NCBI GenBank assembly: GCA_049700215.1 | Contig: JBNAVT010000003.1 | Location: 31,047 to 95,046 of the forward strand | DNA from: Thermoproteota archaeon | GTDB lineage: Archaea; Thermoproteota; EX4484-205; JAAOZP01 | Direction: 5' to 3' | Length of the DNA stretch: 64,000 nucleotides | Notes under the pieces: model-generated | Told to the model about the DNA's origin: nothing | Database searches by the model: none | What the model saw: the letters and a program-made list of their open reading frames with translations, nothing else | Made by a program: the position numbers and the translations under genes | Shown here: positions 83 to 63,872 of the stretch, piece after piece | How the letters are laid out: each line of letters starts with the position of its first letter | Numbering within the stretch: position 1 is the stretch's first letter

Positions 83-96
83 AGCGCGCGCGTGCT
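83..96. repeat. GC-alternating palindromic motif copy (AGCGCGCGCGTGCT)
   Basis: Read directly; one mismatch from a perfect palindrome; followed by a T-tract. Confidence 0.8.
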
Positions 97-198
97 ACTA
101 GAATTTTTTTCACTCCAAAATATTTATTATACGTATTCTCTACGAGTTAAAGAAACTTGTCTATCGTTTAAAAACTGTTGGTTCCTGTAACCGATGTG

Positions 199-657
199 TC
201 ACCAGTAAATCAAGCGTACACAATGATGAAAAACAACCTGTTTGCTCGTAGGGTTGTCTGCGTAGCAATGCATGTAAAGCTTCTCGCCTTTCTTAACGAG
301 GAAGTAACCCGATGGGAAGTATTCGTACACGCATACGTCGTTAACACCGCTTACTTCAGAGTAATAGTCTCTTCCGCAGTATCCGAAATAGCCTTTCTCC
401 CCGATTGGCTCCATTCCAGTACCTTTCTCACTCCATTTAACCCAAGGGTTATCAGGATTCTTTGACAGCACGTGCCCATTATCAGTAGGGTAGCCCCCGC
501 TGCTAACTCCTATGAAGTGTTCAATAGCCACTATGTGCATTTCCTCTTCCGCACTAATGCTTTCAGACCTCTTGTCGACTGTTTTAGGCGGAACCGGGTA
601 AGCCATCGTGTTGATAGTTATTGACTTCAACTCCTTTCCTCCAGCTCTCCTGCTCAT
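199..657 (-). CDS. Hypothetical His-rich, probably beta-rich protein (152 aa); intact copy of a locally duplicated gene
   Basis: ORF 199..720, with a likelier ATG at 657. A diverged paralog at 2189-2655 conserves the protein sequence, supporting coding status. Confidence 0.7.
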   Translation of the reverse strand: MSRRAGGKELKSITINTMAYPVPPKTVDKRSESISAEEEMHIVAIEHFIGVSSGGYPTDNGHVLSKNPDNPWVKWSEKGTGMEPIGEKGYFGYCGRDYYSEVSGVNDVCVYEYFPSGYFLVKKGEKLYMHCYADNPTSKQVVFHHCVRLIYW

Positions 658-728
658 AGTTTCCCGTTCAACGGTTCTGCTATTTATGCTTTTAAGATCA
701 GCCACGCTTCCCAGATGCACGTGTGAAG

Positions 729-742
729 AGCGTGCGCGCTAA
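729..742. repeat. GC-alternating palindromic motif copy (AGCGTGCGCGCTAA)
   Basis: Read directly; left border of the beta-helix fragment. Confidence 0.75.
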
Positions 743-1024
743 CATAGTTGTTGAGGGCAATGGACACATCAAGCTGCGCCGGTTTCACCTCTGAATGCGG
801 GATATTTCTTGAGAAGGTGAATAACGTCACGCTTAGAAACGTTAGGGTGGTGGACTTTGAGAATGGCATTGGCTTCAACTTTTCCTCCGGTAACAATCTC
901 GTGGAATGCACTTTCTCAGGTAATAATTTGGCTGGCGTCTTCCTATATTCCTCCAACAATAACATTGTTAACTGAACTGTTTCCAAAAATAGATCCGGCA
1001 TTGTTTCCTGATCCTCCTTTGACA
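743..1024 (+). pseudogene. Fragment of a right-handed parallel beta-helix (NosD/CASH-type) protein
   Basis: GIFLEKVNNVTLRNVRVVDFENGI...SSGNNLVECTFSGNNLAGVFLYSSNNNIVN has typical beta-helix repeats; it frameshifts into TVSKNRSGIV; no convincing start. Confidence 0.7.
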
Positions 1025-1036
1025 ACGCGCGCGCTA
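1025..1036. repeat. GC-alternating palindromic motif copy (ACGCGCGCGCTA)
   Basis: Read directly; right border of the beta-helix fragment; followed by a T-tract. Confidence 0.8.
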
Positions 1037-1112
1037 GCTTTTTTCTGCTTAAAGATTTTTCATGGACATTGTTAAAAATGCTTAATAAAAAGCTTTTTGT
1101 TTAAAAGGTAAC

Positions 1113-1361
1113 ATGGAAAAGACGATAGAAGAGATGGAGGAAGAACTGAGGGAGAAAACTATGTCCAGAGCTAAAGCCATAATGACGATATTCAAGCTTA
1201 GGGAAGAGTTTGGGGAGCAGTATCTTCAAAAGAGGCGTGGAAGAGTAAGGAGTGAGGAGGAGCTTCGTAGGCTTGCTGAAGCATGCAGGTTGAACTGGAA
1301 ATTTATGGAGGAGGTGGGTATGATACGACGCAACGACGAGGAAATTCTAGTGAGAATATGA
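1113..1361 (+). CDS. Small helical protein, putative antitoxin/partner of the downstream nucleotidyltransferase
   Basis: 82 aa, charged; AT-rich promoter upstream; ATGA overlap with the next gene. Confidence 0.65.
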   Translation: MEKTIEEMEEELREKTMSRAKAIMTIFKLREEFGEQYLQKRRGRVRSEEELRRLAEACRLNWKFMEEVGMIRRNDEEILVRI

Positions 1362-1954: not shown

Positions 1955-2020
1955 CCTAGATGCTAACCTTCCAACCTTCCAAGCATTTTCGGGCGAGAAA
2001 GGTTTCGATCCACGCACGCT

Positions 2021-2145: not shown

Positions 2146-2159
2146 TAGCGCGCGCGCTA
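2146..2159. repeat. Perfect 14-bp palindrome TAGCGCGCGCGCTA
   Basis: Read directly. Confidence 0.9.
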
Positions 2160-2188: not shown

Positions 2189-2655
2189 CTACCAGTAAAT
2201 CAAGCGTATGGCATGATGGAAACCAACTTGGTTGCTTGTAGGGTTAGCGGCGTAGCAGTGCATGTAAAGCCTCTCTCCTTTCTTGACGAGAAAATAGCCG
2301 GATGGGAAGCTTTCATAAATACACACGCCGCTGATCTCGCTTACTTCAGAATAGTAGCCTCTTCCACAGTATCCAAATAGCATTTCTCCCCAGTTGGCTC
2401 CATCCCGGTGCCTTTCCCACTCCATTTAACCCAAGGGTTCTCCGGGCTTTTGGACAGAATGTGGCCGTTATCAGTAGGAAAGCCTCCTGCACTAACCCCT
2501 ATGAAGTGTCCAATTGCCACTATAAGCATATCTTCGCCTGCGATAATGCTTTCAGACCTTCTGTCAACTTTCCCAGGGGGGGAACGGTGTATGCCATTGT
2601 TTTAATGGTTATTGTCTTTAATTCTTTTTCTCTATGTTTACTCTGCTCCGCCTAA
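2189..2655 (-). pseudogene. Frameshifted paralog of the 199..657 gene
   Basis: Three frames give KELKTITIKTMAYTVPP / GKVDRRSESI...GMEPTGEK / FGYCGRGYYSEVS...FHHAIRLIYW. Frameshifts at the G7 run (2576-2582) and a 1-nt deletion near 2375. Confidence 0.8.
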
Positions 2656-8757: not shown

Positions 8758-8877
8758 TAGCACGCTAGAGGCGTTGCTGCGCGTCGCGGGAGTTTCGACA
8801 TGAAAGTAAGCCTAGGGGAAAGTAGGGTTCATGTTCAATTCGTAAACGGTTTAAAGACGTCCGAATCAGCGCGTGCT
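8758..8877. repeat. Two degenerate motif copies (TAGCACGCTA 8758-8767; AGCGCGTGCT 8868-8877)
   Basis: Read directly in the intergenic region upstream of HEPN-MNT. Confidence 0.6.
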
Positions 8878-8933
8878 CAGAGTTTAATCAGGAGAGGGAA
8901 ACAGATAAATTGAAGCCATGAGATGTTCTACAC

Positions 8934-9335
8934 GTGGTAAGCAGGGCAAGAGATTTGATTGAAGATGCTGATGATTTCCTAGGGTCTGCTTTAGACCTGT
9001 TTAAAACCGGAAGGTGGTCAAAGGTGTGTTTCAACGCGCAACAGGCAGCGGAGCTTTCTCTCAAGGCGGTTTTAAACCATTATGGTGTCGAAAGGAGGAC
9101 GCACTCGCTTATCGACCTGATTGAGGAACTGGTTAAAATAGACAGTAGGTTTAAAGAGTTTCAAGAAAACGTTAAGATACTCGACCAGTACTATATTCCA
9201 ACAAGGTATGCTAATGCTTTTGCAAGCGGGCCTGCTAAAAGGCATTTTACAAGACTGCAGGCTGAGCAAGCAATAAGCTTGGCGAAATCCATTCTTGAGG
9301 AGGCGAGGAAGATTGTTGCCGAAGGAGAAGCTTAA
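8934..9335 (+). CDS. HEPN domain protein
   Basis: CFNAQQAAELSLKA, RTHSL, YYIPTRY are signature archaeal HEPN motifs. Confidence 0.9.
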   Translation: MVSRARDLIEDADDFLGSALDLFKTGRWSKVCFNAQQAAELSLKAVLNHYGVERRTHSLIDLIEELVKIDSRFKEFQENVKILDQYYIPTRYANAFASGPAKRHFTRLQAEQAISLAKSILEEARKIVAEGEA

Positions 9336-9750
9336 GAACACGGCTTACGAGAAGATTGGGGAGTTTCTACGCCAGGTTGAAAGGTTCAAGCTAAAACTCG
9401 TCGTGCTCTTCGGCTCTTATGCGAGAGGAGATTTCACCGAGGAGAGCGATATAGATGTCTGCGTGGTTGCAGAAGATCTTCCCGAGAACGTTTTCGAGAG
9501 GAGGAGCCTATCCGGGCTTTACAAGGTAAGCGGCCTCAGGGCTGTTGGCTATTTTCCGGGAGAGTTCTTAAAAGAGTTGGAGAAGCCTAATTTCTTCCTG
9601 CACGATGTGCTTGAAGACGGTTTAATCGTTCACCACGATGGATCCTTTCTCAAAAGCGTGATGGAGAAAAGGGATATGGTTAAGAAGAAACTCGGTCTAG
9701 TGAAGGAGCATGATGGTTGGAGGACGTTAAAAAGGAGAAATAGCGGGTGA
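9295..9750 (+). CDS. Minimal nucleotidyltransferase (MNT), partner of HEPN
   Basis: LFGSYARGDFTEESDIDV (GSx10DxD); true start probably TTG at 9313 or 9316. Confidence 0.9.
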   Translation: MRRRGRLLPKEKLKNTAYEKIGEFLRQVERFKLKLVVLFGSYARGDFTEESDIDVCVVAEDLPENVFERRSLSGLYKVSGLRAVGYFPGEFLKELEKPNFFLHDVLEDGLIVHHDGSFLKSVMEKRDMVKKKLGLVKEHDGWRTLKRRNSG

Positions 9751-9791: not shown

Positions 9792-12344
9792 TTAATCCCA
9801 GTGCAGTTTTTTCTTAAGGGTTTTTAAGGCTGCTTCAAAACTCCCTTTAAAACCGTAAAGATAGTAGGTGAAGTAGGTTGTCGTGCCCGTGTTAACCCTT
9901 ATCCAGGGCTGAACCTCAACATAGGAGTAGTGTGAATCAGGGTTATCCGGAGTGTTCATCCAGACGTGGGTGAGAAACGGGGTTTTAGAGTCGTAAGCCA
10001 TTATGAGCCCAAGCTCCTCCTGCTCGTCGTAGCACGCGACCCAGTCTTCAGTGAGGAAGAGCCTTTTACCGTAGAGCCTACCCTTATACCTCTCCTTGAG
10101 AATGCCGTTGCTTGAAGGATAGTAGATCACGTGGCTGGCGTCAACACTGTTTCCAAGCCTGATCAAAGGGTTGACTCCGATCACGTTGAGCTCGGGATTG
10201 ACAAAATCTGCCTCATACCTGACTTCTAGAAGCGGAGTTCCTCCGTAGAGCGTGAAGGTCTTCTTTAAAACGTTCCCATTCATATTGCCCTCTGCAGTAA
10301 CTACGGCGCTCTCCCCCTCTTTCCTCAATATTCTGATCTTGAATTTTTCATGGCCCTCGACGGTCGGCTGCTGTATGAACTCCTCTAAACCTCCAAAGGG
10401 ATAGAACCTCCTCTTCCTGCCTGAAACCCTCCAGTCCTCAGGCTTCTTAGGGTATAGTTTGAAGAACAGGTCTGCCTCCGGCTTTTTAAGCCTATACTCG
10501 AGCAACCTTCCTCCTGGGGAAATCACTTTAGCCACTATGTACCTGTTTTCAAGCACGGCTTCCTCGAGACCATCCCCGTCATAGTCCCCGGTGTAAGCCA
10601 CGGCCTCTCCTTCAAAGCCACGCGTCTTAATCCTGCAGGTTGCGTTTCCGGAGGAGAACGATATGTTTAACAAGTATTCCCCGTTTTCAAGAGTCAGGGG
10701 GATTACGGTTTTGTACGGCTTGTGAATGGGAGCCCGGATTCTCCGCGCTTCCTCAAGAATCGTCCTCTCTCTTGACGAGACACTGATCTTTAAGTCGCCG
10801 GTCTCAACACCGGTACAATTCCAAATGGTAACCGGTATCTCTAACCGGCCTTTCGAAACCAGCAGGGGGAAAGTGGAAATCATGGGCGGTACCTCAACAT
10901 AGCACAGGTTTCTCCAACAATTATCTTTCGTAAGAAACTCGACCAGCAGCAGCCCATATGACCCGCTTAGCTCTTCAGATATCGATACCTCGAGAGTAAT
11001 CTCGCTCTTCCCTCTCCCTTCAAAATGCGCCGCCATTTTACCAGGCGGATTTACTCTAATCCCGGGGCTCGCCTTAATCTGGAGAACCCCGTCTAAAGGC
11101 TCGTTAAGCCTGTTCTCCATGGCGACTCTAAGGAGCCTGCCTTCCAGCTTTGAAGATAGTGAGAAGAATGTCCCGAAAGTCCTACGGAGATACTGCTTGT
11201 CTGCGAGAAGTATTCTCAACAGGTTTACGAGCATTGAAGGACCCACCGTCTTACCGTCTTCAAACACTCCCACGGCTTTCCGCGAAAGAATCGTTTTCAT
11301 AATTCTTTCCTCGGATGATAGTTCATGATCCTCCTTGTCGACGAACAGCCAGATTGAAGGAGGTGCCTCCCCCCATTCCAAATGGTATGGAAGAATTAAG
11401 AAGGGTGTTTCCAGCTCCTCCAGACACTCGGTGTTGCCCTCGTGAAAAACATAGCCGTCCAAATGGTTCTTCAACACGTCGACATCCGAATCCAGAAGAT
11501 TGTTGAACACTCCGAAAAGCATTTCTCCGGGCTTCTTCATTCTACACGCGTCAGCCGCACCGGAGGACTGGGGATCAGGATACTCGTCCCAATTAACCAT
11601 GAGACACTTGCCGTCGCCGGTGAACTGGCCTGAGAAAACAGTGAAATCAAGGCCGAGCTCCTTTATCTTTGGCACCAACTCCCTAACCGTTAAATCCTCG
11701 CCGGGGCCTACGAGGAAAACCCATTTACAGCCCAGCCTAAGGGCATCCGCCAATATTTTACCCGGGTGCCTGGGCAGGGGGGTCACCATATACCTGCCAC
11801 TTGCACAGAATGGCCACCCCTTCCAGACTTCATGTGTGTTCAAAATCTTCTTCCCCTGGCTAAGTAGCTCCAGCAGTCTTCTAGACTCCTCAAGACCCCT
11901 CGCGGCGATAATCACCGCGGTCTTTCGACTACCGTGCTGCTGGAGATAGAGGAGGAAAACATCCTTGCCCCAGTGCTCCTCTGGGACTCCCTGTTTAAGC
12001 ATTGCCAAGAGTTGCGTGTTGAAGTCGAGGAGAACGATCAGGTTGGATTCGGCTAAGCTCTTCTGAAACTCCTCGGGAGGAGGGTTTGAGACAACTTTGA
12101 AACCCTCTAGTTTCATAAACATTTCGAAAAAACCTTTTTCCATCCAGAATCTTCCGAAGCCCTTTAAAAAATTGTTCTTTCTCTCAATGTTTTTCACCTT
12201 AGCATCAAGGTCTTCGAGACAAAAATCTATCCCAAGGTACGAGGCTGAGACCCATGTTTTCCCCATCCATTCGCGCGAGAATCCTTCAAACCCGTCCTCG
12301 AAAAGCGTAAAATCATACGGACGGTTTTCGGAGGCTTCGTCCAT
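9792..12344 (-). CDS. Large hypothetical protein with a C-terminal galactose-mutarotase-like beta-sandwich domain
   Basis: 850-aa ORF; DYDGDGLEEAVLEN...PGGRLLEY...GGLEE...LKKTFTL pattern. Confidence 0.7.
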   Translation of the reverse strand: MDEASENRPYDFTLFEDGFEGFSREWMGKTWVSASYLGIDFCLEDLDAKVKNIERKNNFLKGFGRFWMEKGFFEMFMKLEGFKVVSNPPPEEFQKSLAESNLIVLLDFNTQLLAMLKQGVPEEHWGKDVFLLYLQQHGSRKTAVIIAARGLEESRRLLELLSQGKKILNTHEVWKGWPFCASGRYMVTPLPRHPGKILADALRLGCKWVFLVGPGEDLTVRELVPKIKELGLDFTVFSGQFTGDGKCLMVNWDEYPDPQSSGAADACRMKKPGEMLFGVFNNLLDSDVDVLKNHLDGYVFHEGNTECLEELETPFLILPYHLEWGEAPPSIWLFVDKEDHELSSEERIMKTILSRKAVGVFEDGKTVGPSMLVNLLRILLADKQYLRRTFGTFFSLSSKLEGRLLRVAMENRLNEPLDGVLQIKASPGIRVNPPGKMAAHFEGRGKSEITLEVSISEELSGSYGLLLVEFLTKDNCWRNLCYVEVPPMISTFPLLVSKGRLEIPVTIWNCTGVETGDLKISVSSRERTILEEARRIRAPIHKPYKTVIPLTLENGEYLLNISFSSGNATCRIKTRGFEGEAVAYTGDYDGDGLEEAVLENRYIVAKVISPGGRLLEYRLKKPEADLFFKLYPKKPEDWRVSGRKRRFYPFGGLEEFIQQPTVEGHEKFKIRILRKEGESAVVTAEGNMNGNVLKKTFTLYGGTPLLEVRYEADFVNPELNVIGVNPLIRLGNSVDASHVIYYPSSNGILKERYKGRLYGKRLFLTEDWVACYDEQEELGLIMAYDSKTPFLTHVWMNTPDNPDSHYSYVEVQPWIRVNTGTTTYFTYYLYGFKGSFEAALKTLKKKLHWD

Positions 12345-12437
12345 AATTTAAGAATACTGGCTGCTTAAATAAATATAAAGTTTAAGGATAACAGGATGGC
12401 GTTGCTTACGACGCGGATTAAGACTCTATCTCCAAGA

Positions 12438-12578
12438 TAGCGCGCGCCAGCAGGAGTACGACTATTGAGGCTCATCTGGCTGCGACAAGCAATGCTTAAA
12501 CCCTAGTCGTTAGCAACTCTGACACCCTCTTTAACCATCCATCGCGCACGCTCCGCCAAGCATCTTAGCGTGCACTAA
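12438..12578. repeat. Three motif copies (TAGCGCGCGCCA 12438-12449; TCGCGCACGCT 12542-12552; TTAGCGTGCACTAA 12565-12578)
   Basis: Read directly in the intergenic region downstream of vapC. Confidence 0.75.
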
Positions 12579-12591
12579 CACTGTTTTCGGT

Positions 12592-12987
12592 TTACGGTAT
12601 CGTTGTGATTCCAAGCCTCTTAGACGCATAGCGTTGTTTATCGTCGAGAGTGAGCAACGAACCCTTCTCGTGAAATGCTAGAGCTATGTAGAGCGCGTCA
12701 TAGACGGTTATCCCGTTTTCAAGAGCTATTTCAAACGCTTTATCCGTATATTCCTCTTCTCTCCTAAGCGCCATGTTTCTTTCAACATATTCCTTGAATA
12801 AGGCTAAAACACGTGAAGCTTCTTCAACGCCTATTCTCTTAAGGTTCACTGCCTTCCACACGGCATTATAGAACTCTTTAACCGTGTGATCAACAGATAC
12901 GGTTGCAGCCATGTATTTAGAGAGCTCGCTCCAACCTTCTTCACGCAGAAAGAAGGCTATGATGGCTGAGGAATCAGCTACTATCAC
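12592..12987 (-). CDS. vapC: PIN-domain toxin VapC
   Basis: MIVADSSAI, KEFYNAVWK, ITVYDALYIALA, LLTLDDKQ. Confidence 0.92.
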   Translation of the reverse strand: MIVADSSAIIAFFLREEGWSELSKYMAATVSVDHTVKEFYNAVWKAVNLKRIGVEEASRVLALFKEYVERNMALRREEEYTDKAFEIALENGITVYDALYIALAFHEKGSLLTLDDKQRYASKRLGITTIP

Positions 12988-13204
12988 GGTCCTCCCTCAC
13001 GCTCATTGTTGAGAAACCCTTTGGCACGCTCCATGAGGCTCCTTCCAAAGCCTCAAGAACCTTCTTGAAGTTGTCCTCGGCTTCAAGCTGCCTAATCCTA
13101 TTCTCGATGAACCTTCTGAACTCCTGTGCCCAGTTCACCCTATCCTTATACTTCATCATCTTATCCTTAATCTCCTTCTCAACCTTAACGCTTACAACGC
13201 TCAT
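12974..13204 (-). CDS. vapB: VapB-type (RHH/CopG-like) antitoxin
   Basis: MSVVSVKVEKEIK...VNWAQEFRRFIE...SVREDRDS; overlaps the vapC start; start refined to ATG at 13204. Confidence 0.85.
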   Translation of the reverse strand: MSVVSVKVEKEIKDKMMKYKDRVNWAQEFRRFIENRIRQLEAEDNFKKVLEALEGASWSVPKGFSTMSVREDRDSS

Positions 13205-13214
13205 ACGATTATTA

Positions 13215-13255
13215 GTATACCATTGGTAGACCATTTTATAAACCTTATGGTCTAC
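13215..13255 (-). promoter_or_regulatory. vapBC promoter with operator repeats
   Basis: Perfect inverted repeat GTAGACCAT (13226-13234) / ATGGTCTAC (13247-13255) around TTTATAAA; third half-site GTATACCAT (13215-13223). Confidence 0.7.
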
Positions 13256-13313
13256 TTATATAGCCCCAAGCGCAGGGCTCACGCTAGGGACGGTTTAGAG
13301 ATTGAAGAAGTAA

Positions 13314-13327
13314 TTAGCGTGCGCTTA
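13314..13327. repeat. Motif copy TTAGCGTGCGCTTA
   Basis: Read directly. Confidence 0.75.
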
Positions 13328-13403
13328 GAAAAAGAGCTATATGCCTATGCTAAACCCCCTATAGTCCTTCTGGTCGCGTAAACCATCTCCACATCCCTAA
13401 CCC

Positions 13404-13417
13404 TTAGCGCGCGCTAA
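13404..13417. repeat. Perfect 14-bp palindrome TTAGCGCGCGCTAA
   Basis: Read directly; ends the secreted-protein pseudogene frame. Confidence 0.9.
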
Positions 13418-13998
13418 CAAGGTTTCCACGTGTAACATCCTCTTCCACATGGCTACCACCATTCTTAACCAGCTTGCAGCTGTAGCCTACGAACTCACCT
13501 GGATTGGTGAAAATCGCGACGGCCTCGTCTTCGTTAAATTCTATGGATGAAAGCCTGAGTTCAGGAGGGGTTGGGGCAGTTTCCCCCATGACCCTGATCA
13601 TGAAGCCTCCAGGTCCTTTACTTGTGGCGTTTAGATAAGTCAGGATGGTGTGCTCATCAACGTTTACTATGAAGCTGCTATTTGAGAAAGGGGATCATTG
13701 TCGACGCTTATCCATAGTTGGGCACCGTCTAGGGTAAACATGGGGACTATGACGACATAGAAAATGCCTGTTACAACGACGTTTGGAAGCTGAATAATGT
13801 ACCAGTCTAGAGCGGAGCTCTTGAAGACACTGCTGTGGAGGAATGCTGAGCGCGCGCGCAGTATTTTAGTGTTTAACCCGCTGTCCCAGATTTGGACGTA
13901 GAAGATGGAGCAGGGTCCCTGAGCAAACATGTTGCGTGAAGCTCGCGCGCTAATGACAGTAAGGCTAGGGCTAGAATAAGACCCATGAGTCTAACCAT
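13404..13998 (-). pseudogene. Decayed secreted/surface protein gene in several pieces
   Basis: TATA then ATG at 13998 gives signal-peptide-like MVRLMGLILALALLSL, then FYVQIWDSGLNTK...LWISVDNDP, then a frameshift to FSNSSFIVNVDEHTIL...GFMIRVMGE; motif copies at 13940-13953, 13846-13861 and 13404-13417. Confidence 0.7.
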
Positions 13999-14329
13999 AG
14001 CTAGGTTAAGGGTTGAGGTTTTTAAATAAGTTTTTCAAATATTCTCATCCAACTATATATTAACGCACAGCAGTTCTTCGATTTCCTCAAGCCTAGTGGC
14101 GTGCCAAATCGAACGTGTAAATGATTATAATTGATCCGCCTCCATCAGCGCAGGCTACAGCGACAATGGAAGATGAACCTCATCCCCGTACCAGAGAATG
14201 GTATGAGCCTCTTTCCGTCGAAGCTCAACGTCCCCGTTATAGTGCTGTCCAGCATGCGTAGAGACACCAGCGTGGAGAACCCTCTACCTACGATTTTTAA
14301 CTCTGAACCTCTTACAGCAGGTTATCCCC

Positions 14330-14341
14330 TGCGCGCGCTAA
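14330..14341. repeat. Motif copy TGCGCGCGCTAA
   Basis: Read directly; a startless minus-strand frame (about 14148-14320) begins next to it. Confidence 0.75.
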
Positions 14342-14378
14342 TGGTTGAAACGGGTTTATAGAGAAGATTTAGCGTATG

Positions 14379-14840
14379 TTAAAGCTCTAGAAGGACTCGT
14401 CTTTTCTGCATGTTCATTGTCAGCAGCCTCATTTTATTGTTTAAAACCTCTCTGCCCACAAGTACTTCACCCGTCAAGAGTTCGGGCTCTGTGGGGATGT
14501 AAACCCTGACCCTGCCGAGACCCATCTGCTCCCCGCCATAGTAAAGAGAAGCCTCCGCCACGTATATCTCAAACTCCGAGGCACCGTATAGAGGATTCTC
14601 AAAGATGGCCTTAGCAGTTGGCTCAACTCCTTCGAACATTCTCACTATCTCCATGTTCGGATAGATCCCGCCGTCAAAGCCAGTGTCGATTATAGCCGCC
14701 CCGTGTGCCCGATATCTACCAGCCCTGATTACGAGATGGATGACTGGTATATCGGGTATTTTTTCCCCGCGATCAGTATACCCGTCCTCGGCATAGTGGT
14801 AGCCAATCCTCATTATTCTTCGATCTCCTCGACAACCCAT
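14379..14840 (-). CDS. Retropepsin-like (clan AA) aspartyl protease
   Basis: AIIDTGFDG catalytic motif and VLVGREVL C-terminal motif; true start may be about 14813. Confidence 0.75.
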   Translation of the reverse strand: MGCRGDRRIMRIGYHYAEDGYTDRGEKIPDIPVIHLVIRAGRYRAHGAAIIDTGFDGGIYPNMEIVRMFEGVEPTAKAIFENPLYGASEFEIYVAEASLYYGGEQMGLGRVRVYIPTEPELLTGEVLVGREVLNNKMRLLTMNMQKRRVLLEL

Positions 14841-15079
14841 TTCTCCTTAATCGACCTGCCACGTAGCCGCGGGGACCTGAGCCTGAGGTAGCCGGTAGAA
14901 CTCAGCTTCCATAAGATAGTAGGATACCTATGGTCTTTGGCTTCAACCTCCATTCCCAGCTTTTCCTCCAATATTCTAGCTATGGCCTCGCTTCTAGCCA
15001 TATTCAACTGCTTACAAAGAGCGTCTACCTTCTTCAGAATGGCTTCCGGAATGCTTACGCTTATCTTAACATTAGTCAT
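14813..15079 (-). CDS. Ribbon-helix-helix (CopG-type) protein
   Basis: KISVSIPEAILKKVDALC...MARSEAIARILEE. Confidence 0.85.
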   Translation of the reverse strand: MTNVKISVSIPEAILKKVDALCKQLNMARSEAIARILEEKLGMEVEAKDHRYPTILWKLSSTGYLRLRSPRLRGRSIKEKWVVEEIEE

Positions 15080-15115
15080 ACCAAGTAATACTTTTTACTA
15101 CCTATTTAAGCTTTC
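15075..15115 (-). promoter_or_regulatory. Putative RHH operator and TATA box
   Basis: GTCATAC (15075), GTAATAC (15085), TTACTAC (15095) at exact 10-bp spacing, next to minus-strand AAAGCTTAAATA. Confidence 0.55.
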
Positions 15116-15297
15116 GGCTTTTTGGATCCCGAGTCATTAAACTGCCTAGCGAGCTAGCTTCTAACAGAAGCCTCTCGTTGAAAAAAGTTAATTTCTGCCT
15201 TAAGAATTAAGCCGACTTCTTGCCCTGTCGACTAGGATTCCGCTTTTTCCGCTTTCAGGATGAGCGTAAACTAGTTTCCAGAGAGCACGCTACATGC

Positions 15298-16257
15298 TTA
15301 CTTGGAAGAGTTGGTTAGAACATCGTCGACGCTTAGCAAGTCCAGGTCGTCGACGCTAACTCCTTCGGCAAGCACCCTGTATGCTCCGACACACCTTTTA
15401 GCAACCTCCTTAACAACCGGAGAAGGCAGCTCAGGCGGCTCCCCCTCCCCAGCAAAGCCCATCCTCCTCAAGCATTCCCTGAGAAACTCTTTGTCTAGGC
15501 AGTGCGACTCCTGCGGCTCCCCAACCCTGTAGTACTTGACCGGCCAGAGCCTAGCGGAGTCGTGCGTAGGCGGCTCGTCTATCTGGATCAACTCATCCCT
15601 GTGGAAGCCGAACTCTATTTTGAAGTCAGGTATTATGATCCCTGCTTTCCTGGCCTCAGCCTCGTAAAACTCGTACAGCTTTAGAGCAGCCTCCTCCAGC
15701 GTGCGCCAAGTATCAGCGTCGAGAAGCCTCATCTCCAGGGCTTCAGCCCTAGTGATCTCCCTGTCATGACCCACATCGGCCTTCGTAGTGGGTGTTAACA
15801 CTGGCTCCGGAAGCTCCTCAGCCATCTTCAACCCATCGGGGAACCTTAACCCGTATATTTCCCTCCTGCCCTCGCTGTAAGCCCTCCACAATGATCCGTA
15901 AAGATATTTCCTAACAACCCATTCAACATTAATCCTCCGGGCCTTCCTCACAAGTATGCTCCTCTCATCCACAGCGTCTATAAGATGGTTTGGAAACACA
16001 CTACTGCTTCTCCTCATCCAGAATACGGTTAGCTTCTGCAAGTATTCTCCCTTCCTAGGTATGGGTGTTGGAAGCACGACGTCGAAAGCGGAAACCCTGT
16101 CGGTATGATATATTAAGAGCTCCTCGCCCAGGTCGTAAATGTCCCTGACCTTCCCCCTCAACAGCCTCCCGATGCCTAGGTTAGAGTATTTGACAACAGG
16201 TATTTCCCCGCCGGTTAAAGGATCCTCAGCCAGCCTCATCAAAGCCTTTCTCCCCAC
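15298..16257 (-). CDS. purC: SAICAR synthase
   Basis: RGKVRDIY, TDRVSAFD, TPTTKA, DFKIEFG, DSARLW, DKEFLR. Confidence 0.95.
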   Translation of the reverse strand: MGRKALMRLAEDPLTGGEIPVVKYSNLGIGRLLRGKVRDIYDLGEELLIYHTDRVSAFDVVLPTPIPRKGEYLQKLTVFWMRRSSSVFPNHLIDAVDERSILVRKARRINVEWVVRKYLYGSLWRAYSEGRREIYGLRFPDGLKMAEELPEPVLTPTTKADVGHDREITRAEALEMRLLDADTWRTLEEAALKLYEFYEAEARKAGIIIPDFKIEFGFHRDELIQIDEPPTHDSARLWPVKYYRVGEPQESHCLDKEFLRECLRRMGFAGEGEPPELPSPVVKEVAKRCVGAYRVLAEGVSVDDLDLLSVDDVLTNSSK

Positions 16258-16309
16258 GGGTGTTTAAAAAACGTTTCCAACCCTAGGGCTTAAAGCTTAT
16301 CTCTACCAG

Positions 16310-16675
16310 TTGCGAGAATACCTTATGGAGCACCCTGTTCCTCCACCACCACCTGGACAAATATACCTCTCTACGACTCCTGAAATACCTGGGATGAGAA
16401 TCGTGAGAAGCCTTGGCATAGTCTTCGGGCAAACAGTTAGGACGAGAGGCGCGCTTGGAAGATTCGTAGCTGGGATAGAGGCGATAGTCGGGGGGAAGTC
16501 GGAAGCATACCTCTCGGAAATCGAGAAGGCGAGGAACGAAGCCCTTGAGAACCTTATGAGGAGAGCAGCCTCGATTGGTGCGAACGGGGTTGTCGGCATA
16601 GATTTCGAAACCTCTGAAATCCTAGAGGGCTTCATAGTAATCACTGCCGTGGGAACAGCGGTGAGGGTGGAGTAG
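16310..16675 (+). CDS. YbjQ/UPF0145 family putative heavy-metal-binding protein
   Basis: LGIVFG, IVGG, ARNEAL, GANGVVGI, GTAV. Confidence 0.9.
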   Translation: MREYLMEHPVPPPPPGQIYLSTTPEIPGMRIVRSLGIVFGQTVRTRGALGRFVAGIEAIVGGKSEAYLSEIEKARNEALENLMRRAASIGANGVVGIDFETSEILEGFIVITAVGTAVRVE

Positions 16676-16764
16676 GAAACTCTTCGGCAACACAGCTTTT
16701 TATCCGTAATTATTGATATTGACCCAGGAAAACGATTAAATACTTCCTCTAAACATGCTTAACC

Positions 16765-16998
16765 ATGGTTGTCAAGGCATACGTGTTCCTGGTGACGAAG
16801 CCTGGAACATCCATAGAAGTTTCAAATGAAATGAAGAAGATTAAGGGTGTTCATTCAGCCGATCCCATTTACGGCAGGTTTGATGTTGTGGCGACGGTTG
16901 AAGCCGAGAGCCCTGAGGAATTGACTAGCCTGCTCTACGAGGTTATTGAGAGGATTCCGAATATTGTTAGAACAGAGACCTCCATAGTGTTGCAGTGA
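16765..16998 (+). CDS. Stand-alone Lrp/AsnC ligand-binding (RAM) domain protein
   Basis: KAYVFLVTKPG...YGRFDVV...RTETSIV; no HTH domain. Confidence 0.85.
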   Translation: MVVKAYVFLVTKPGTSIEVSNEMKKIKGVHSADPIYGRFDVVATVEAESPEELTSLLYEVIERIPNIVRTETSIVLQ

Positions 16999-17004
16999 CT
17001 CAAG

Positions 17005-17238
17005 ATGATCAGGGCCTTCATCCTTGTTAGAACCAAGCCGGGCACTTCTGAAGAGGTTGTGAGGACAAGGAGGGTTAGGGGTGTTAAACTGGCTAATTCC
17101 GTCCTGGGAAGATATGATGCAGTATTGGTGATAGAATCCAAAAACCTGGAGGAGCTCAGGAAAACGATTTACGAGGTTTTGGAGAAGCTTGAACACGTTG
17201 AGCATACTGAAACACTAATATCTTTCTCTCCAGAGTAG
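17005..17238 (+). CDS. Stand-alone Lrp/AsnC ligand-binding (RAM) domain protein, paralog 2
   Basis: RAFILVRTKPG...LGRYDAV...HTETLIS. Confidence 0.85.
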   Translation: MIRAFILVRTKPGTSEEVVRTRRVRGVKLANSVLGRYDAVLVIESKNLEELRKTIYEVLEKLEHVEHTETLISFSPE

Positions 17239-17312
17239 TGAAGAAAGATAGTGTTAAACCCATCCCTCACGTTCTTCATAAAACCCGTCAGCAATTACTT
17301 TATTCCAATGTT

Positions 17313-18473: not shown

Positions 18474-18569
18474 TCCAGCGTAGAACTCTTAAATCTTTAA
18501 ACTCTCCTCTAGTTAGCGCGCTGCTCATATTTTGGAATTTTGCCTACTCGTATGCGTTCCCGAGACTTG

Positions 18570-19317
18570 CTAGCGTATGTGTAAAACTGGCTTCGGCCTA
18601 TATGGCTCCTCCAGGTACTTGATCTCGTCATCCGTCAGCTAGCGCGCGCTACAGCGTTGGGGCTGTAGGGTATAAGCGCAATGTTATACGTCTTGCAAAA
18701 GGGTATCATCTCCCTCTCCTCCTCGCGGTAAAGCAGGTTATAGAGGTTCTGCATGCTTACGAACTTCTCGTAGCACTTCATCTCGCTGGTGAAGTAGGCG
18801 GTGGCGAACTGCCACGTCCACATGCTGGACGCGCCCATGCACCTCACCTTTCCCTGATGCACTAAACAGGTTAATGTGGATAAAGTCTCATCTATCCCGG
18901 TGGAGTAGTCCCACCTGTGTATCTGGTAGAGGTCTACGTAACCGGTCTTGAGCCTGCTGAGCGACCCCTCTATCTGCCTCAAAATATGCTTCCTTGAAAG
19001 CCCTGAGTCGTTTGGCTTGTCCCCCATGGGGAAGAACACTTTTGTGGCCACCACCGCGTCCTCCCTTCTTCCCTGCAGAAACCCCCAAGTATCTCCTCAG
19101 ACTTTCCCCTCGAGTACACGTTGGCAGTGTCGTAGAAGTTTATGCCGAGGTCCCACGCCCTGTTCAAAAACTTGAAAGCCTCCTCTTTGCCGGAAACCCA
19201 GCCCCCTCCCCCGAAGGGTTGCAAAGCCGGGTCGCCGAAAGACATGGCTCCCAGGCAGATCTTTGAAACCTTAAGCCCAGACCAGCCTAAGCGAACATAC
19301 TCCATTTGTCGAATCAT
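18570..19317 (-). pseudogene. Aldo/keto reductase (YajO-like) with a frameshift and a large internal deletion
   Basis: GLKVSKICLG, DTANVYS, ATKV, DLYQIH, QNLYNL, IPYSP; 1-nt frameshift at about 19080; jumps across TAGCGCGCGCTA to the C-terminus LTDDEIKYLEEPYRPKPV. Confidence 0.88.
18640..18651. repeat. Perfect palindrome TAGCGCGCGCTA at the AKR deletion junction
   Basis: Read directly; flanking copies at 18513-18522 and 19349-19358. Confidence 0.9.
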
Positions 19318-19386
19318 GCTTTTACAAGATATATAAGCATTTGCCGAGGCACGCGTGCACGTTAAGAATTTTAAAAATAGTTTAGG

Positions 19387-36408: not shown

Positions 36409-36434
36409 AACCTAATTTAGGATGATACTAAATT
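36399..36434. promoter_or_regulatory. Tandem DtxR/MntR-type operators overlapping the start codon and TATA box
   Basis: TTAGG-cacaa-CCTAA (36401-36415) and AATTTAG-gatgata-CTAAATT (36414-36434); minus-strand AAAAGCTTAAAT adjacent. Confidence 0.8.
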
Positions 36435-36745
36435 TAAGCTTTTCGCGAACCGCGTTAACGCACTAAGAGCATCGCGCGCTTGCCACGTTAATTACTGGCT
36501 GAAATGCCTGGGTGAAGCCTAGAAATACGGTGACTGCTTCAAATCCGGCTTACCGGGCTCCGACGTGCATTATCGTTCGAAACCTGATCCACCTCAAGGC
36601 AGGTGGATTTAGCTCGCGCTGCATGCAGAATTTATAGATTGCATGTGAAAGCGGGATTAAGCTCAGGGGAAAAGTGTTGCATGGAAGGAAACAACATAAT
36701 CCCTACTAAACCCTTTATTCGAGAAAAAAGAGTAGAATCTTAAAA

Positions 36746-60852: not shown

Positions 60853-62509
60853 AATACTTCTTCACGAGATGGGTTAAATCAACCTCGAAACCGGCTACGG
60901 GATTCTCTAAACCGTTCAACTCCAATACTTCTGGATGAACCTCGCCCAGAACCCCTAGCTGGCCATTGTTAAAAACGATTTTCGCAACCCTGCCCGGCGT
61001 GAACAAGGAGTCCTCCCCCTTCTCGAACGAGACTGGCTCAACACATAGGTTGCTCAGCAGGCTCAGCACAACGGACTTGGCTTCCGAGAATGAGGCTGAA
61101 GAGTGGGCTGAAACCCCTGCCAGCGAAACCTGTGTGTCTACAAACCCGTTTTCAGACACTCTTATAACAGGGCCTGTTTCGAAGATTCTCTGAGGATACT
61201 TTTCATGCTTATTGTAAGAGAGATTCCTTATCAACCCCGGTAGGAGGGAGTCCCTGAGCATTGTGAGCTCAACGCTGGAGGAGTTTGCAAGCCTAGCCCT
61301 CTCGGCAACAGGCCTCCTAACCATGCGGTAGCTCTGATCCTCGTTGGTAATCAGGAAATTGAAGACTTCAGTGTAGCCAAGCCCTATCATGAGTAGCCTA
61401 GCCCTGTCCTGAACAATAGTCTCAGGATGCTTCAAGCCTATTGTGGAAGCCGCGGGGTAAGTCGGGGTCAGCCTCCACAGGCCATACCCTATAGCGACCT
61501 CCTCAACAAGGTCGACGTTATGCATTATGTCTACCCTGTAGGGGGGAACACCGACTCTAAACCTGCCCCCATCGTTCACCACTGAGAACCTGCATTTCAA
61601 GAAGCTCCTGTAGATCTCAGCGTTGCTCAAGTTTTCCCCGAGGAGGGAATTGATATACTGTGCTTCAACACTCATGATCCTGGGCTTGAAATCAGGATAG
61701 GTTTTCTCAGATCCGTCGTCATAGACTATCTTCACTGCTTCAATGCTCCCACCCATGTCTTTAAACAAGTATAGGAGTATGTTCAGGGCTCTTGAAGCAT
61801 AATACTCGTCTAGGGCGGTTACGTCTATGAAGAGGTTTCTGGTCTCGGGGGTTAAGCGAGTGAGCTCAGAGTTTATTATCGGCGGGAAGGATAAAACCTC
61901 CCCGGTTGAATCCACTATCACAGGATACTTGTCAAACCCTTTAATAATATGGCCATACTCTAAGCCCTTGTCAACCCATTTTAAAACCTCGTTCAGAGTC
62001 ATCCTCCTATCGATTCCAAGCGGCTTGAACGACACCCCGTCTGGGTCTGCAGCCACGTAGTAGACGGGGGGCTTAATCCTATCCAAGTCGTGTATCCCGA
62101 TGGAGACCTTACGCCTATTCCTACCAATCCCCTGGTGAAGGACTTCTTGAACATTAATCACCTCCTTCAAATCCTCCTCGCTAAGCCTAATGTTCCTCAC
62201 TACAGCGGAGCACAGGACATCCCTGATCCCCCTCAGCCTACCGTCAAAGTGGAAAACTATCCTCGGGCTTGAGGAAACCGCTTCAGGATAGCCCAGCCCG
62301 ATTTCAAGAAAACCCGCGTACGCCCTAGCGATGCCCGCGTGGCTAGAGAAGTCCGGCCTGTTAGGATTATACTCTATCTTGACAGACTCTTCGCCAACGT
62401 CCTCAATATCCGTTGCAAGCCACGGCAGGTCGTCGACAAGCTGCTTCAGCCCAACGTCAATGCCTAGGAACCTGCTCAGCCTCTCAGGGTAGACGTCTAT
62501 CACGGGCAT
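60842..62509 (-). CDS. pheT: Phenylalanine-tRNA ligase beta subunit
   Basis: PNRPD, IGIHDLD, SFPPIINS, PPYRVDI..VDLVEEVAIGYG, GEVHPEVL. Confidence 0.96.
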   Translation of the reverse strand: MPVIDVYPERLSRFLGIDVGLKQLVDDLPWLATDIEDVGEESVKIEYNPNRPDFSSHAGIARAYAGFLEIGLGYPEAVSSSPRIVFHFDGRLRGIRDVLCSAVVRNIRLSEEDLKEVINVQEVLHQGIGRNRRKVSIGIHDLDRIKPPVYYVAADPDGVSFKPLGIDRRMTLNEVLKWVDKGLEYGHIIKGFDKYPVIVDSTGEVLSFPPIINSELTRLTPETRNLFIDVTALDEYYASRALNILLYLFKDMGGSIEAVKIVYDDGSEKTYPDFKPRIMSVEAQYINSLLGENLSNAEIYRSFLKCRFSVVNDGGRFRVGVPPYRVDIMHNVDLVEEVAIGYGLWRLTPTYPAASTIGLKHPETIVQDRARLLMIGLGYTEVFNFLITNEDQSYRMVRRPVAERARLANSSSVELTMLRDSLLPGLIRNLSYNKHEKYPQRIFETGPVIRVSENGFVDTQVSLAGVSAHSSASFSEAKSVVLSLLSNLCVEPVSFEKGEDSLFTPGRVAKIVFNNGQLGVLGEVHPEVLELNGLENPVAGFEVDLTHLVKKYSKS

Positions 62510-62518
62510 AGCTTAACC
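62463..62518. repeat. Direct repeat copy A (pheS tail / pheT 5' end)
   Basis: Hand alignment with 63876-63929 gives 47 of 56 identical positions and a 2-nt gap. Confidence 0.85.
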
Positions 62519-62784
62519 ATTTTTCCATGGAGATAACTGGATTATTAAGTTTTAGCTATGAATGATAAATTCCATACCCACCCTGACTCTAGTCCCAGGA
62601 GGCAAGTTTATTTTTTCATATCGCTGAATGCGCACGCCGGTAGAATCGCAGGATCAACCGGTGCGGTGCTTCTCTTTACCATCTCGGCGTGCAATACCGC
62701 TTCGTCTTAGCTTCTGATTTCATGTTTCAGGCAATCCCTTAAATTAAAACAAAGTTTAAATATTACTTTAAAGCTAGTTTTATC

Positions 62785-63057
62785 ATGGGCGAGAAAATCA
62801 CTTCTCTAAAAATCGATCCTGAGCTTTGGAAAAAAGTGAAACTGCTTGCAGTTAAGAGGGGGATTACTCTTAAAAGTTTAATCGAAGAACTACTAACCCT
62901 CGAAGTTGAAGGAGAAGAATTCTTACTGGGCGAAGCCAATGCTTCAACAGAACTTTTGGAAACTCTAGAGGAAAGGAGGAAAAAAGGGTTAATGCCTTTC
63001 ACCATTAAATCGAAGAAGAGTGCAGTAGAGCTCATTAGAGAAGGAAGGGGAGAATAA
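62785..63057 (+). CDS. vapB: RHH-type antitoxin
   Basis: TSLKIDPELWKKVK...SAVELIREGR; directly upstream of a PIN gene. Confidence 0.8.
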   Translation: MGEKITSLKIDPELWKKVKLLAVKRGITLKSLIEELLTLEVEGEEFLLGEANASTELLETLEERRKKGLMPFTIKSKKSAVELIREGRGE

Positions 63058-63064
63058 GGGTAAG

Positions 63065-63580
63065 TTGAACACTCAAAGCTATTATGTTGACACTAGTCTT
63101 ATCATAGCGAGGTATAAACCATCGGATAGCTTATACAGGGACTCTGATGCATTTTTCAAAAGTAACTTCGTTTTCGTGGCATCTCCAGTTACGCTTGCCG
63201 AGCTATATTGCGTTTTATCGAGAGCGAGAAGTGAGCTCGATATACCGATGCAAGTTGAACCACTTTTAGATACGCTCATAACATTCATAATTAGAGACTG
63301 CAAGCTTAAACTGTTGTCTAGAAGCTATTACGTGAAAAAGGATTTGGCCCTACAGGCGTGCAGAATAGGCTTGGAGTACTATATAGCAACCAGATTAGCC
63401 GAGAATCTGAGTCTTAGGACACTGGATATGCTCCACCTTTCGTATGCACGGATATTGAGAAAAACATACGGCGTAGGCTCATTCGTCACTGGAGATGAGG
63501 AAATACTGGAGAAAGCAGAAGCCATAAGAAAAAGTTTTGGAATAAAAGTTTTTCACCCAAAACAAGTAATACAGACCTGA
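63065..63580 (+). CDS. vapC: PIN-domain toxin
   Basis: YVDTSLI, TLAEL, LRTLDMLH, FVTGD. Confidence 0.88.
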   Translation: MNTQSYYVDTSLIIARYKPSDSLYRDSDAFFKSNFVFVASPVTLAELYCVLSRARSELDIPMQVEPLLDTLITFIIRDCKLKLLSRSYYVKKDLALQACRIGLEYYIATRLAENLSLRTLDMLHLSYARILRKTYGVGSFVTGDEEILEKAEAIRKSFGIKVFHPKQVIQT

Positions 63581-63872
63581 GCCCACACCCTTTAGCATGC
63601 CAACATTCCAGAATCCTCCAAGAAAACATTATAATATGCGGAAAGACAGGCTCGCGTCCACTCTACGAACCCTGGAGTCAGCGCGTGGGGTTAGACTCCC
63701 CAGTTTTTCACAGTTTTTATAAACTGTTTTCCTTCATGCCTTTTTGCTATAATGTTTAAAGATCTCGTGGCGCGCTGATTTAACACGATAAGAAGTTACT
63801 AGTTCCTCGGCCCTGGATTTTGGCAATCGTATTTAGCCGATTAAAAATGGAAACAAGATTTGCAGCACGCTA

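Follow-up and report, generated by a model that had tools for sequence, protein, structure and literature searches.

In a 64-kb stretch of DNA from a hot-spring archaeon (hereafter the window), short palindromes of the form TA(GC)nTA recur in accessory regions, and they raise the question of whether such tracts are sites that the cell uses or sequence left where DNA was lost and rejoined. The comparisons described here favor the second answer. In this archaeon, as in certain relatives, a short inserted TA(GC)4-5TA seals sites of loss and rearrangement, a pattern that points toward a rejoining route not described before.

Abundance and placement of the GC palindrome

In the 2.09-Mb source genome (G000), 118 copies of A(GC)4T (AGCGCGCGCT) are present, against 1.1 to 1.6 expected under order 1-3 Markov models, together with 33 copies of A(GC)5T (0.05 to 0.08 expected) and 35 copies of the 12-mer TAGCGCGCGCTA (0.03 to 0.07 expected), whereas enrichment of A(GC)3T is weak (53 copies versus 24 to 31). 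Measured against this Markov null, the enrichment anticipated by the first-pass annotation amounts to an approximately 100-fold excess genome-wide. The phase of the tract is strongly biased (GCGCGCGC, 165 copies; CGCGCGCG, 10 copies), and around the source-genome sites neither conservation past the T-A...T-A bracket nor a second half-site is observed. The motif is intergenic at 105 of 151 sites, often just 3' of a stop codon. Within the genus this trait is confined to a single clade, and outside it the motif turns up in scattered other Thermoproteota.

Strong over-representation of a GC palindrome and its intergenic placement after stop codons are both features expected of a functional or methylation-driven iterated palindrome, or of a terminator or operator, retained through selection or through biased repair. 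We regard this explanation as very unlikely. Tandem (55), convergent (25), and divergent (18) spacers all carry the motif, which argues against a regulatory site; the sites are not kept between genomes that are 94 to 95% identical, and they originate by indel and not by substitution. The earlier judgment that neither a transcription factor site nor a terminator would fit is thus upheld by the lack of site retention and by the presence of the motif in every spacer type. Methylases show no matching distribution: the C5 methylase (PF00145) is found only in two genomes with 0 motifs (G001 and G004), N4/N6 methylases are found in motif-rich and motif-free genomes alike, and the PF01555 methylase is present in 5 of 5 genomes tested. 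A similar case is HIP1, the highly iterated palindrome of cyanobacteria, reportedly treated by Elhai in 2015. HIP1 is common within genes, keeps its positions, and is coupled to cognate methylases. The present motif resembles it in being an 8- to 10-nt GC-rich palindrome that is many-fold over-represented and lineage specific, but differs in occurring as intergenic indels, in being unconserved (0 shared sites with n ≥ 4), and in having no correlated methylase. Highly iterated palindromes of cyanobacteria are also the topic of two articles (PMC6604393 and PMC6105098).

Within the window, the first-pass annotation had counted more than 25 copies across 29 coordinates. Alternating GC runs of 8 to 10 nt are found at eight coordinates (83, 1025, 2146, 12438, 13404, 13846, 14330, and 18640), of 7 nt at three (13940, 36471, and 37256), and of 6 nt at another three (729, 18513, and 63768). 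The remaining 15 are degenerate look-alikes without a run of at least 6 nt, mostly C>T or G>A away from the motif, and include a palindrome of another kind at 19349. Ten more runs lie beyond the 29, and the three of these that were compared with relatives (6920, 12272, and 16449) are conserved. All eight long runs fall within 1-19 kb, in agreement with the clustering in accessory DNA noted earlier, and the 12-mer itself occurs twice in the window (13405 and 18640; 0.01 expected).

The tracts, given here without strand, stand between single accessory genes and toxin-antitoxin pairs or within gene remains. AGCGCGCGCGTGC (83..95; 9-nt run) lies downstream of the gene at 199-720, and a perfect TAGCGCGCGCGCTA (2146..2159; (GC)5), with T runs on both sides, lies downstream of a truncated paralogue. 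A perfect TTAGCGCGCGCTAA (13404..13417) separates gene fragments in accessory DNA, and no homologue of either side was found in the sister genome (G002). Several sites lie within a single pseudogene at 13.4-14.3 kb. A gene fragment from a multi-copy family contains GAGCGCGCGCGCAG (13848..13861; (GC)5) and has CTCGCGCGCTAA (13943..13953; 7-nt run) at its edge, with an 85-nt repeat that occurs in several relatives beginning just 3' of CTCGCGCGCTAA. Decayed copies are seen at 12565..12578 (TTAGCGTGCACTAA, two CpG transitions) and 13314..13328 (TTAGCGTGCGCTTAG, one transition). Across the genome, single-step decay consists mostly of transitions (71 versus 8.6 expected): the scars decay through CpG transitions, and they persist mainly in dispensable DNA.

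This decay by point mutation also bears on whether the motif is an assembly, binning, or library artefact, a suspicion encouraged by the fact that every genome of the genus is a metagenome bin and that a tract lies within 300 nt of 17 of 170 contig ends. Independent assemblies make such an origin highly improbable. A Logan contig from the source run spans 12300-19400 with 1 difference, and in an independent sample from another study (X2) contigs cross 18172-18853 and 13824-14715 with 0 differences; at least three scars are spanned there without a difference. The junctions, for which the first-pass annotation had asked for confirmation by reads, are reproduced in these contigs. In addition, G104, a single-contig genome, is likewise enriched (22 versus 0 for the control). 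Contigs of two other samples (X3 and X5) carry an intact allele at 18640 with 284 letters between the flanks, the relative X3 shows another GC scar after 13903, and at 12449 loose contig ends are seen in X1, X2, X3, and X5.

Motif alleles and their intact counterparts

The proposal that the motif marks rearrangement junctions is borne out by homology blocks shared with the sister genome: for 4 to 5 of 20 block boundaries in the window, a motif site is no more than 5 nt away, where 0.10 to 0.27 are expected, and 0 of 2,000 random draws matched this coincidence. Homology stops at 728, directly before AGCGTGCGCGCT (729..740; a (GC)5 copy bearing a single C>T), and begins at 1036, directly after the 9-nt run of ACGCGCGCGCTAG (1025..1037). 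One block (35683-36610) ends at TAGCTCGCGCTG (36610..36621; one mismatch from the motif), with the next starting from 36693. Other tracts lie somewhat farther from a boundary: TAGCGCGCGCCA (12438..12449; (GC)4) is 49 nt past the end of block 9823-12389, and CTGCGCGCGCTAA (14329..14341; (GC)4) is 60 nt before block 14400-15115, which is on a different contig in the sister genome. Also on another contig there is block 8891-9741, a HEPN/nucleotidyltransferase pair, preceded by 14 nt by AGCGCGTGCT (8868..8877; one transition from the motif). The look-alike AGCACGCTACA (15284..15294; no run of at least 6 nt), 4 to 14 nt before block 15298-18640, is a weak assignment.

The clearest case is the perfect TAGCGCGCGCTA at 18640..18651, the scar of a 284-bp deletion within an aldo/keto reductase gene. 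The remnant (18635..19054, minus strand; 139 aa; PF00248, E 1.5e-32) covers profile positions 66-191 of 291, and its reading frame stops at the motif. Both G002 and G009 retain 284 to 287 bp here and have the gene intact, with a 280-aa frame crossing the breakpoint in G002; alignment with the two shows that AGCGCGCGCT was inserted between a T and an A that are ancestral. Nearby, at the place of TTAGCGCGCTGC (18513..18524; (GC)3), the same genomes have GCGCAC or ACGCAC. At a second locus, a 785-bp stretch retained by four outgroups (G002, G009, G007, and G006) is replaced by (GC)5 in the source genome. At 7 of the 13 events of at least 100 bp, the long allele has a frame of 237 to 1,806 aa across a breakpoint, and in one deletion both breakpoints lie within a 1,112-aa frame. 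Since outgroups and broken reading frames agree, the motif allele is the derived state. The filler is new sequence, missing from the ancestral allele at both breakpoints: no (GC)n is found near either breakpoint in the ancestral alleles of the 18640 and 785-bp loci.

These long alleles also speak to the idea, raised at the outset, of a recombinase core site, or of an integron-like cassette system moving accessory genes. The position of motifs between single accessory genes and toxin-antitoxin pairs would suit such a system. However, ordinary genes are cut, such as the aldo/keto reductase and the 1,112-aa frame, and neither a conserved flank nor a second half-site is present. In contrast to integron-like cassettes, the long alleles are motif free at both ends, and a recombinase core site is disfavored given that the motif is missing from the ancestral alleles. 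We consider this explanation to have very little chance of being correct.

The genome-wide comparison with the sister genome covers 1.67 of approximately 2.2 Mb at 94 to 95% identity, and 108 of 165 canonical source-genome sites have no mappable flank there. Of the 24 with both flanks mapped, 13 replace 16 to 4,823 bp of the sister allele (net shorter by 7 to 4,661 bp), 6 are net insertions, 3 take the place of sister sequence about equally long, 1 corresponds to a degenerate counterpart, and 1 is complex. This agrees with the earlier expectation that the motif would be missing from intact orthologous alleles and occupy the place of deleted DNA. No site with n ≥ 4 is intact in both genomes, all 12 shared sites having n = 3; the scars are not common to genomes 5 to 6% apart. 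When the indels are sorted by size, the share with the motif on the short allele is 12 of 43 at 200-1000 bp, 7 of 54 at 1-20 kb, 3 of 33 at 50-200 bp, and 10 of 427 at 8-50 bp.

One could also imagine two steps, in which an ultra-short mobile palindrome inserts and the GC tract, fragile through Z-DNA or a cruciform, later provokes adjacent deletions. The six pure or near-pure insertions, the clustering of sites as in the pseudogene at 13.4-14.3 kb, and one locus (C6:24624 in the source genome) at which the tract follows the same GATAAA flank in both genomes are what this scheme would produce. Yet its intermediate is almost missing: none of the mapped sites has an intact tract in both genomes; of 34 sites with one mapped flank, just 2 have a tract at that flank in the sister genome; a junction tract is present on the long allele in just 1 of the 43 indels of 200-1000 bp and 3 of the 54 of 1-20 kb; and neither breakpoint of the 785-bp deletion has a tract in the four outgroups. 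Such a sequence of events therefore seems improbable.

Junction structure and a candidate rejoining route

At the junctions, the borders of the new sequence slide between -3 and +2 nt relative to the run, and the ancestral flank provides A, TA, or GC in 11 of 21 left junctions (a count from about 21 junctions, taken without a formal null), which suggests microhomology. Out-of-phase joins number 0.

A TA-bracketed palindrome is also exactly the form of footprint that Tc1/mariner/IS630 transposons leave upon excision. A TA-targeting element of this type, with inverted ends starting in GCGC, would leave the TA target duplication around a GC run made of the remains of both ends, and one insertion is indeed flanked by a 6-bp, target-site-like duplication (GTCAAA). 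The constant short palindrome and its variation in length by a few letters are shared with these footprints. Against this origin, no multi-copy sequence continues from TAGCGC in the source genome (601 half-sites) or the sister genome (486), with at most two sharing the next 12 nt; GC-tipped inverted repeats 200-6000 bp apart include no element-like pair (4 weak matches in the source genome, 0 in the sister genome); and DDE_3 (PF13358, the IS630 transposase) has no match in any of the 17 genomes searched from the genus (controls, 5 of 14), which are all metagenome bins from which plasmids, viruses, and multi-copy elements are possibly absent. Moreover, most events delete flanking DNA, up to several kilobases (13 of 24 sites, with net insertion in only 6), and resection ought to take the end-derived footprint letters first; at several junctions the TA on each side of a 320-bp deletion is ancestral. 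Because no donor element was found, an excision footprint is disfavored, and we deem it rather unlikely.

The sister-genome comparison supports the first-pass reading of the motif as sequence gained or left behind where ends were joined, and of the three origins suggested there the data favor filler made during rejoining. At a probability of roughly 60%, we interpret the TA(GC)nTA tracts as scars of a lineage-specific form of break rejoining that inserts self-complementary GC filler. Part of the DNA breaks or replication template switches would end in a join that loses 0 to approximately 5 kb and leaves a short self-complementary filler at the junction, usually A(GC)4T and less often with n = 3 or 5. 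Both ends would gain the same GC-alternating 3' tail, from a T-A-(GC)n-T-A template or from an enzyme producing alternating G and C, with synthesis primed by 0 to 3 nt of terminal microhomology. Being self-complementary, the tails could anneal in register, and the resulting 8- to 10-bp all-GC duplex, presumably stable enough at hot-spring temperature, would hold the ends for gap filling and ligation. This scheme would account for why n peaks sharply at 4, why no joins are out of phase, and why A/T letters stand beside the run. Against rejoining filler, neither an enzyme nor a template was found, a constant filler is unlike the output of known end-joining pathways, and the GTCAAA duplication is more transposition-like. 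More tentatively, some Thermoproteota, among them this clade and scattered others, might possess a dedicated end-healing activity that adds a self-complementary T-A-(GC)4-5 tail to both break ends with no or a very short template, the all-GC duplex serving as a heat-stable clasp for ligation. If so, this would be a Ku-independent and telomerase-independent break repair suited to high temperature, and a major force in gene loss, behind up to about one-quarter of mid-size deletions.

Like the first-pass annotation for the window, the searches of genomes of the genus found no responsible enzyme. Ku (PF02735) and reverse transcriptase (RVT_1, PF00078) are each found in 0 of the 17 genomes (3 of 14 controls for the latter), Prim-Pol is matched in the sister genome only, PolX has no match over the cut-off, and PolY and NurA occur in motif-rich and motif-free genomes alike. 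This profile differs from that of Ku-dependent NHEJ, which relies on Ku together with a polymerase of the LigD type. Fillers at joins are otherwise known from N-additions in NHEJ, polymerase-theta-type templated insertions, and synthesis-dependent MMEJ; to our knowledge, they are random or copied from nearby flanks. The scars resemble them in combining deletion with a short junction insertion and error-prone formation, and perhaps in 0 to 3 nt of border microhomology. In contrast to such fillers, the one seen here has a single sequence at over 150 places and the ancestral flanks lack it, and, unlike local templating by polymerase theta or SD-MMEJ, one filler recurs genome-wide with no (GC)n near the ancestral breakpoints.

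In de novo telomere addition, or chromosome healing, a fixed repeat is put on broken ends whatever the local sequence, primed by minimal end homology. The fixed sequence and, as proposed, the minimal-homology priming are similar here, but the ends are rejoined internally, the repeat is self-complementary, and reverse transcriptase was found in none of the 17 genomes. Nor did comparison of the source and sister genomes reveal a conserved motif-bearing locus fit to serve as a template gene, as telomerase-like healing would have. We found no published description of TA(GC)nTA scars. The mobile GC clusters of yeast mitochondria have been associated with TAG-like target sequences and with the junctions of deletions. 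These clusters, treated in one article (PMC4478555), are short GC-rich palindromic insertions, polymorphic between close genomes and mostly intergenic. While they are 30 to 60 bp long with family-specific sequence and the scars are 10 to 14 bp with nothing conserved past TA, both are short GC palindromes that are polymorphic and mostly intergenic.

Form and distribution of the GC palindrome

The genome under study, G000, is an archaeal assembly of 2.09 Mb in 85 contigs (G+C 49.2%); the window spans C3:31047-95046, and Pfam matches within the window include CdvA, arcadin-1, Alba, ribosomal protein S25e, and thermosome. Alternating C/G runs of at least 6 nt occur 24 times in the window and 608 times across the genome, and the exact 12-mer TAGCGCGCGCTA is found at window positions 13405 and 18640, against an expectation of 0.01. 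The first-pass annotation had listed 29 palindrome positions in the window, about half of which hold a genuine run (8 to 10 nt at 8 positions, 7 nt at 3, and 6 nt at 3), with the other 15 being degenerate look-alikes. Genome-wide, even run lengths are overrepresented (176 runs of 8 nt versus 107 of 7 nt, and 55 of 10 nt versus 34 of 9 nt), and the runs keep one phase, with 165 copies of GCGCGCGC versus only 10 of CGCGCGCG. They are flanked by A at -1 (77%), T at +1 (76%), T at -2 (50%), and A at +2 (47%); no conserved letters were seen farther out than ±2 nt of the runs in G000. The motif reads TA(GC)nTA, usually A(GC)4T, and its proposed abundance is borne out against Markov models of orders 1 to 3: AGCGCGCGCT occurs 118 times where 1.1 to 1.6 copies are expected, A(GC)5T 33 times where 0.05 to 0.08 are expected, and A(GC)3T 53 times where 24 to 31 are expected.

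Genomes of the genus differ greatly in motif count, and the motif-rich members are closer to G000 by DNA identity (94 to 95% for the sister genome G002 and 75 to 88% for G006 to G010, versus ~74% for the motif-free G003). Next to the 118 sites of G000, we count 88 in G008, 70 in G002, 33 in G009, 32 in G007, 18 in G006, 16 in G010, 6 in G013, and 3 each in G011 and G014; G001, G003, G004, G005, G012, G015, and G016 have none, and the reversed-pattern control gives 0 to 3 in every genome of the genus. Motif-rich genomes measure 2.0 to 2.3 Mb and motif-free ones 0.6 to 1.8 Mb, all being metagenome bins. In a sample of 401 genomes across the phylum, a few unrelated members are also enriched, namely, G374 (35 copies, control 1), G139 (30, control 0), G104 (22, control 0), and G379 (14, control 1). 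The share of sites flanked by TA on both sides is alike in G008 (28/88) and G000 (35/118) and lower in these distant genomes (4/30, 4/35, 5/22, and 2/14). Among one genome per prokaryote species, a scan for the 14-mer TTAGCGCGCGCTAA found at least 121 stretches, of which 80 were listed, a sample rather than a census; 13 of those 80 belong to Bathyarchaeota/Bathyarchaeia bins.

Junctions and their ancestral alleles

The scars are very unlikely to be assembly artifacts, since contigs of both the source run and an independent sample cross them. From the probable source run, one Logan contig extends over window positions 12300 to 19400 with one difference, and in another sample, taken in a separate study, contigs cross 18172 to 18853 and 13824 to 14715 with zero differences. 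Two further samples contain relatives with 284 letters between positions 18640 and 18651, one of which has a different GC scar after position 13903. Window stretches left uncovered in sequencing runs X2, X3, and X5 carry no information. The suggestion that motifs mark rearrangement junctions agrees with the window's homology blocks: of 20 block boundaries, 4 to 5 have a motif site no more than 5 nt away (expected, 0.10 to 0.27).

We mapped the 200-nt flanks of each run of at least 8 nt in both directions between G000 and its sister genome, a comparison spanning 1.67 of the ~2.2 Mb of G002. Within this span, G000 and G002 have no intact A(GC)nT site of n ≥ 4 at corresponding positions; the 12 sites in common are all the 8-mer AGCGCGCT (n = 3), and the core-gene in-frame hexamers at window positions 6920, 12272, and 16449 are conserved. 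At 24 canonical sites both flanks could be mapped, and at 13 of these the motif allele is the shorter one, as anticipated if the motif replaces deleted DNA, with 16, 20, 24, 33, 42, 58, 128, 284, 320, 332, 498, 784, and 4823 bp of the sister allele replaced. The motif allele is longer, i.e., an insertion, at 6 sites, replaces a stretch of similar length at 3, faces the degenerate counterpart GCCACGC at 1, and is complex at 1. A general indel survey of the two genomes adds more clean cases, some with n = 3, such as TAGCGCGCTA in place of 527, 603, and 1988 bp.

At window positions 18640 to 18651, G000 carries AGCGCGCGCT where G002 and G009 retain 284 to 287 bp of an aldo/keto reductase gene, and the leftover frame aligns only to profile positions 66 to 191 of 291. 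Likewise, at G000 C13:40909, (GC)5 stands in place of ~785 bp retained by G002, G009, G007, and G006. A long-allele frame of 237 to 1806 amino acids spans a breakpoint in 7 of 13 events of at least 100 bp, and both breakpoints of one event fall within a single 1112-amino-acid frame. Because outgroups retain the replaced DNA and long-allele frames cross breakpoints, the motif allele is the derived one, a deletion plus a new insert. Recombinase sites, regulatory sites, or HIP-like palindromes all fail as explanations, since the positions are not conserved and the ancestral alleles are without the motif. Beside a tRNA gene end, G002 has 3.3 kb (C47:10593-13916), in place of which G000 shows a (GC)5 scar and 91 unrelated nt (C17:4724).

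Junction anatomy, candidate agents, and a proposed filler reading

Across 1.08 Mb of aligned G000 and G002 sequence, scored for the motif in the short allele, the motif accompanies 12 of 43 indels of 200 to 1000 bp, 7 of 54 of 1 to 20 kb, 3 of 33 of 50 to 200 bp, and 10 of 427 of 8 to 50 bp. The long allele has a tract at the junction in only 1 of the 43 events of 200 to 1000 bp and 3 of the 54 of 1 to 20 kb, and of 34 sites with one mapped flank, only 2 face a tract at that flank in the sister genome, so that re-use is rare. A scheme in which a mobile palindrome inserts first and deletions follow beside the tract as a fragile site fares worse here, as the tract-only intermediates that it predicts are almost absent. 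One-step variants of the motif are mostly transitions (71 versus 8.6 expected; transversions, 37 versus 24.4), and copies therefore decay quickly.

Relative to the run, new sequence begins or ends anywhere between -3 and +2 nt. At some junctions (GC)4 alone is new, with TA or A/T being ancestral, and at others GC comes from the flank, in which case the -1 letter is other than A. Out-of-phase joins such as AGCGCCGCGCT number 0 in G000, against ~0.35 expected. One insertion has a 6-bp duplication on its flanks. The data are consistent with a single step that seals a break or template switch with newly made, self-complementary GC filler. Both ends would gain the same tail, primed from minimal microhomology, the two tails would pair in register, and the resulting all-GC duplex of 8 to 10 bp would stabilize the join at high temperature. 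The footprint of a transposon would have the right shape, yet it fares worse, leaving the loss of flanking DNA unpredicted and coming with neither a donor element nor an IS630-type transposase in the genomes searched. Half-sites, GC-tipped inverted repeats, shared arms past ±2 nt, and contig-end similarity gave nothing convincing as a donor.

Among the enzyme families tested for co-occurrence, none tracks the motif between motif-rich and motif-free genomes. RVT_1, Ku, and DDE_3 are each found in 0 of 17 genus genomes, and the PolX palm gave a single subthreshold match. A C5 methylase is present in two motif-free genomes only, a Prim-Pol match in G002 only, and NurA, PolY, and N4/N6 methylases in motif-rich and motif-free genomes alike. 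Nor did the comparison of G000 with 1.67 Mb of G002 yield a conserved motif-bearing locus as a candidate template gene, all shared sites being n = 3. A multicopy family of 983 amino acids adjoins motifs 8 times in G000 (3 expected) and has 24 loci there (e.g., C42:26-2977), with proteins of up to 1774 amino acids, many fragmented copies, and an end weakly resembling an SfsA-like restriction nuclease (E = 0.0003, subthreshold). It is found in 15 of 17 genus genomes, including G004, G012, G011, and G014, which are classed as motif-free; we thus discard it as the agent and read it merely as dispensable, scar-collecting DNA. Given that the genus genomes are all metagenome bins, the agent may be extrachromosomal.

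To our knowledge, little is established about how archaea without Ku rejoin broken chromosomes. In hyperthermophiles, short microhomologies are unable to keep DNA ends together, and the problem is therefore sharper. A title-level literature search on iterated palindromes, archaeal end joining, and filler DNA found no description of such GC-palindrome deletion scars. If true, a fixed filler would be a readable signature of a Ku-less rejoining pathway, by which gene-loss events in uncultured archaea could be dated and mapped, deletion rates measured from metagenomes, and the enzyme traced through its phyletic pattern in motif-rich versus motif-free sister genomes. Such an activity, making or placing a linker of defined alternating-GC sequence at DNA ends, could also serve as a tool. 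Should the scars instead be footprints of an unseen transposon, they would still expose a very active element missed by current bins.

Genomic placement and accessory neighbors

On a crude longest-ORF map covering 88.8% of G000, 105 of 151 A(GC)4-5T sites are intergenic. Sites lie in 55 tandem, 25 convergent, and 18 divergent spacers, a spread unlike that of an operator or terminator, and at 10 or more sites the motif's TAG doubles as the stop codon of the adjacent frame.

A GC scar lies immediately downstream of each of two paralogous genes without a Pfam match (window positions 199 to 720 and 2189 to 2425, minus strand), and the second copy is truncated. Toxin-antitoxin-like pairs are seen in motif-rich accessory stretches, a HEPN/nucleotidyltransferase pair at 8934 to 9750, which sits on another contig in G002, and a PIN-domain pair at 12592 to 13234. 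Finally, an 85-nt stretch just past a motif site (13954 to 14041) matches many contigs of G002, G007, G008, and G009 at 75 to 82% identity and may represent a small dispersed repeat or RNA gene.
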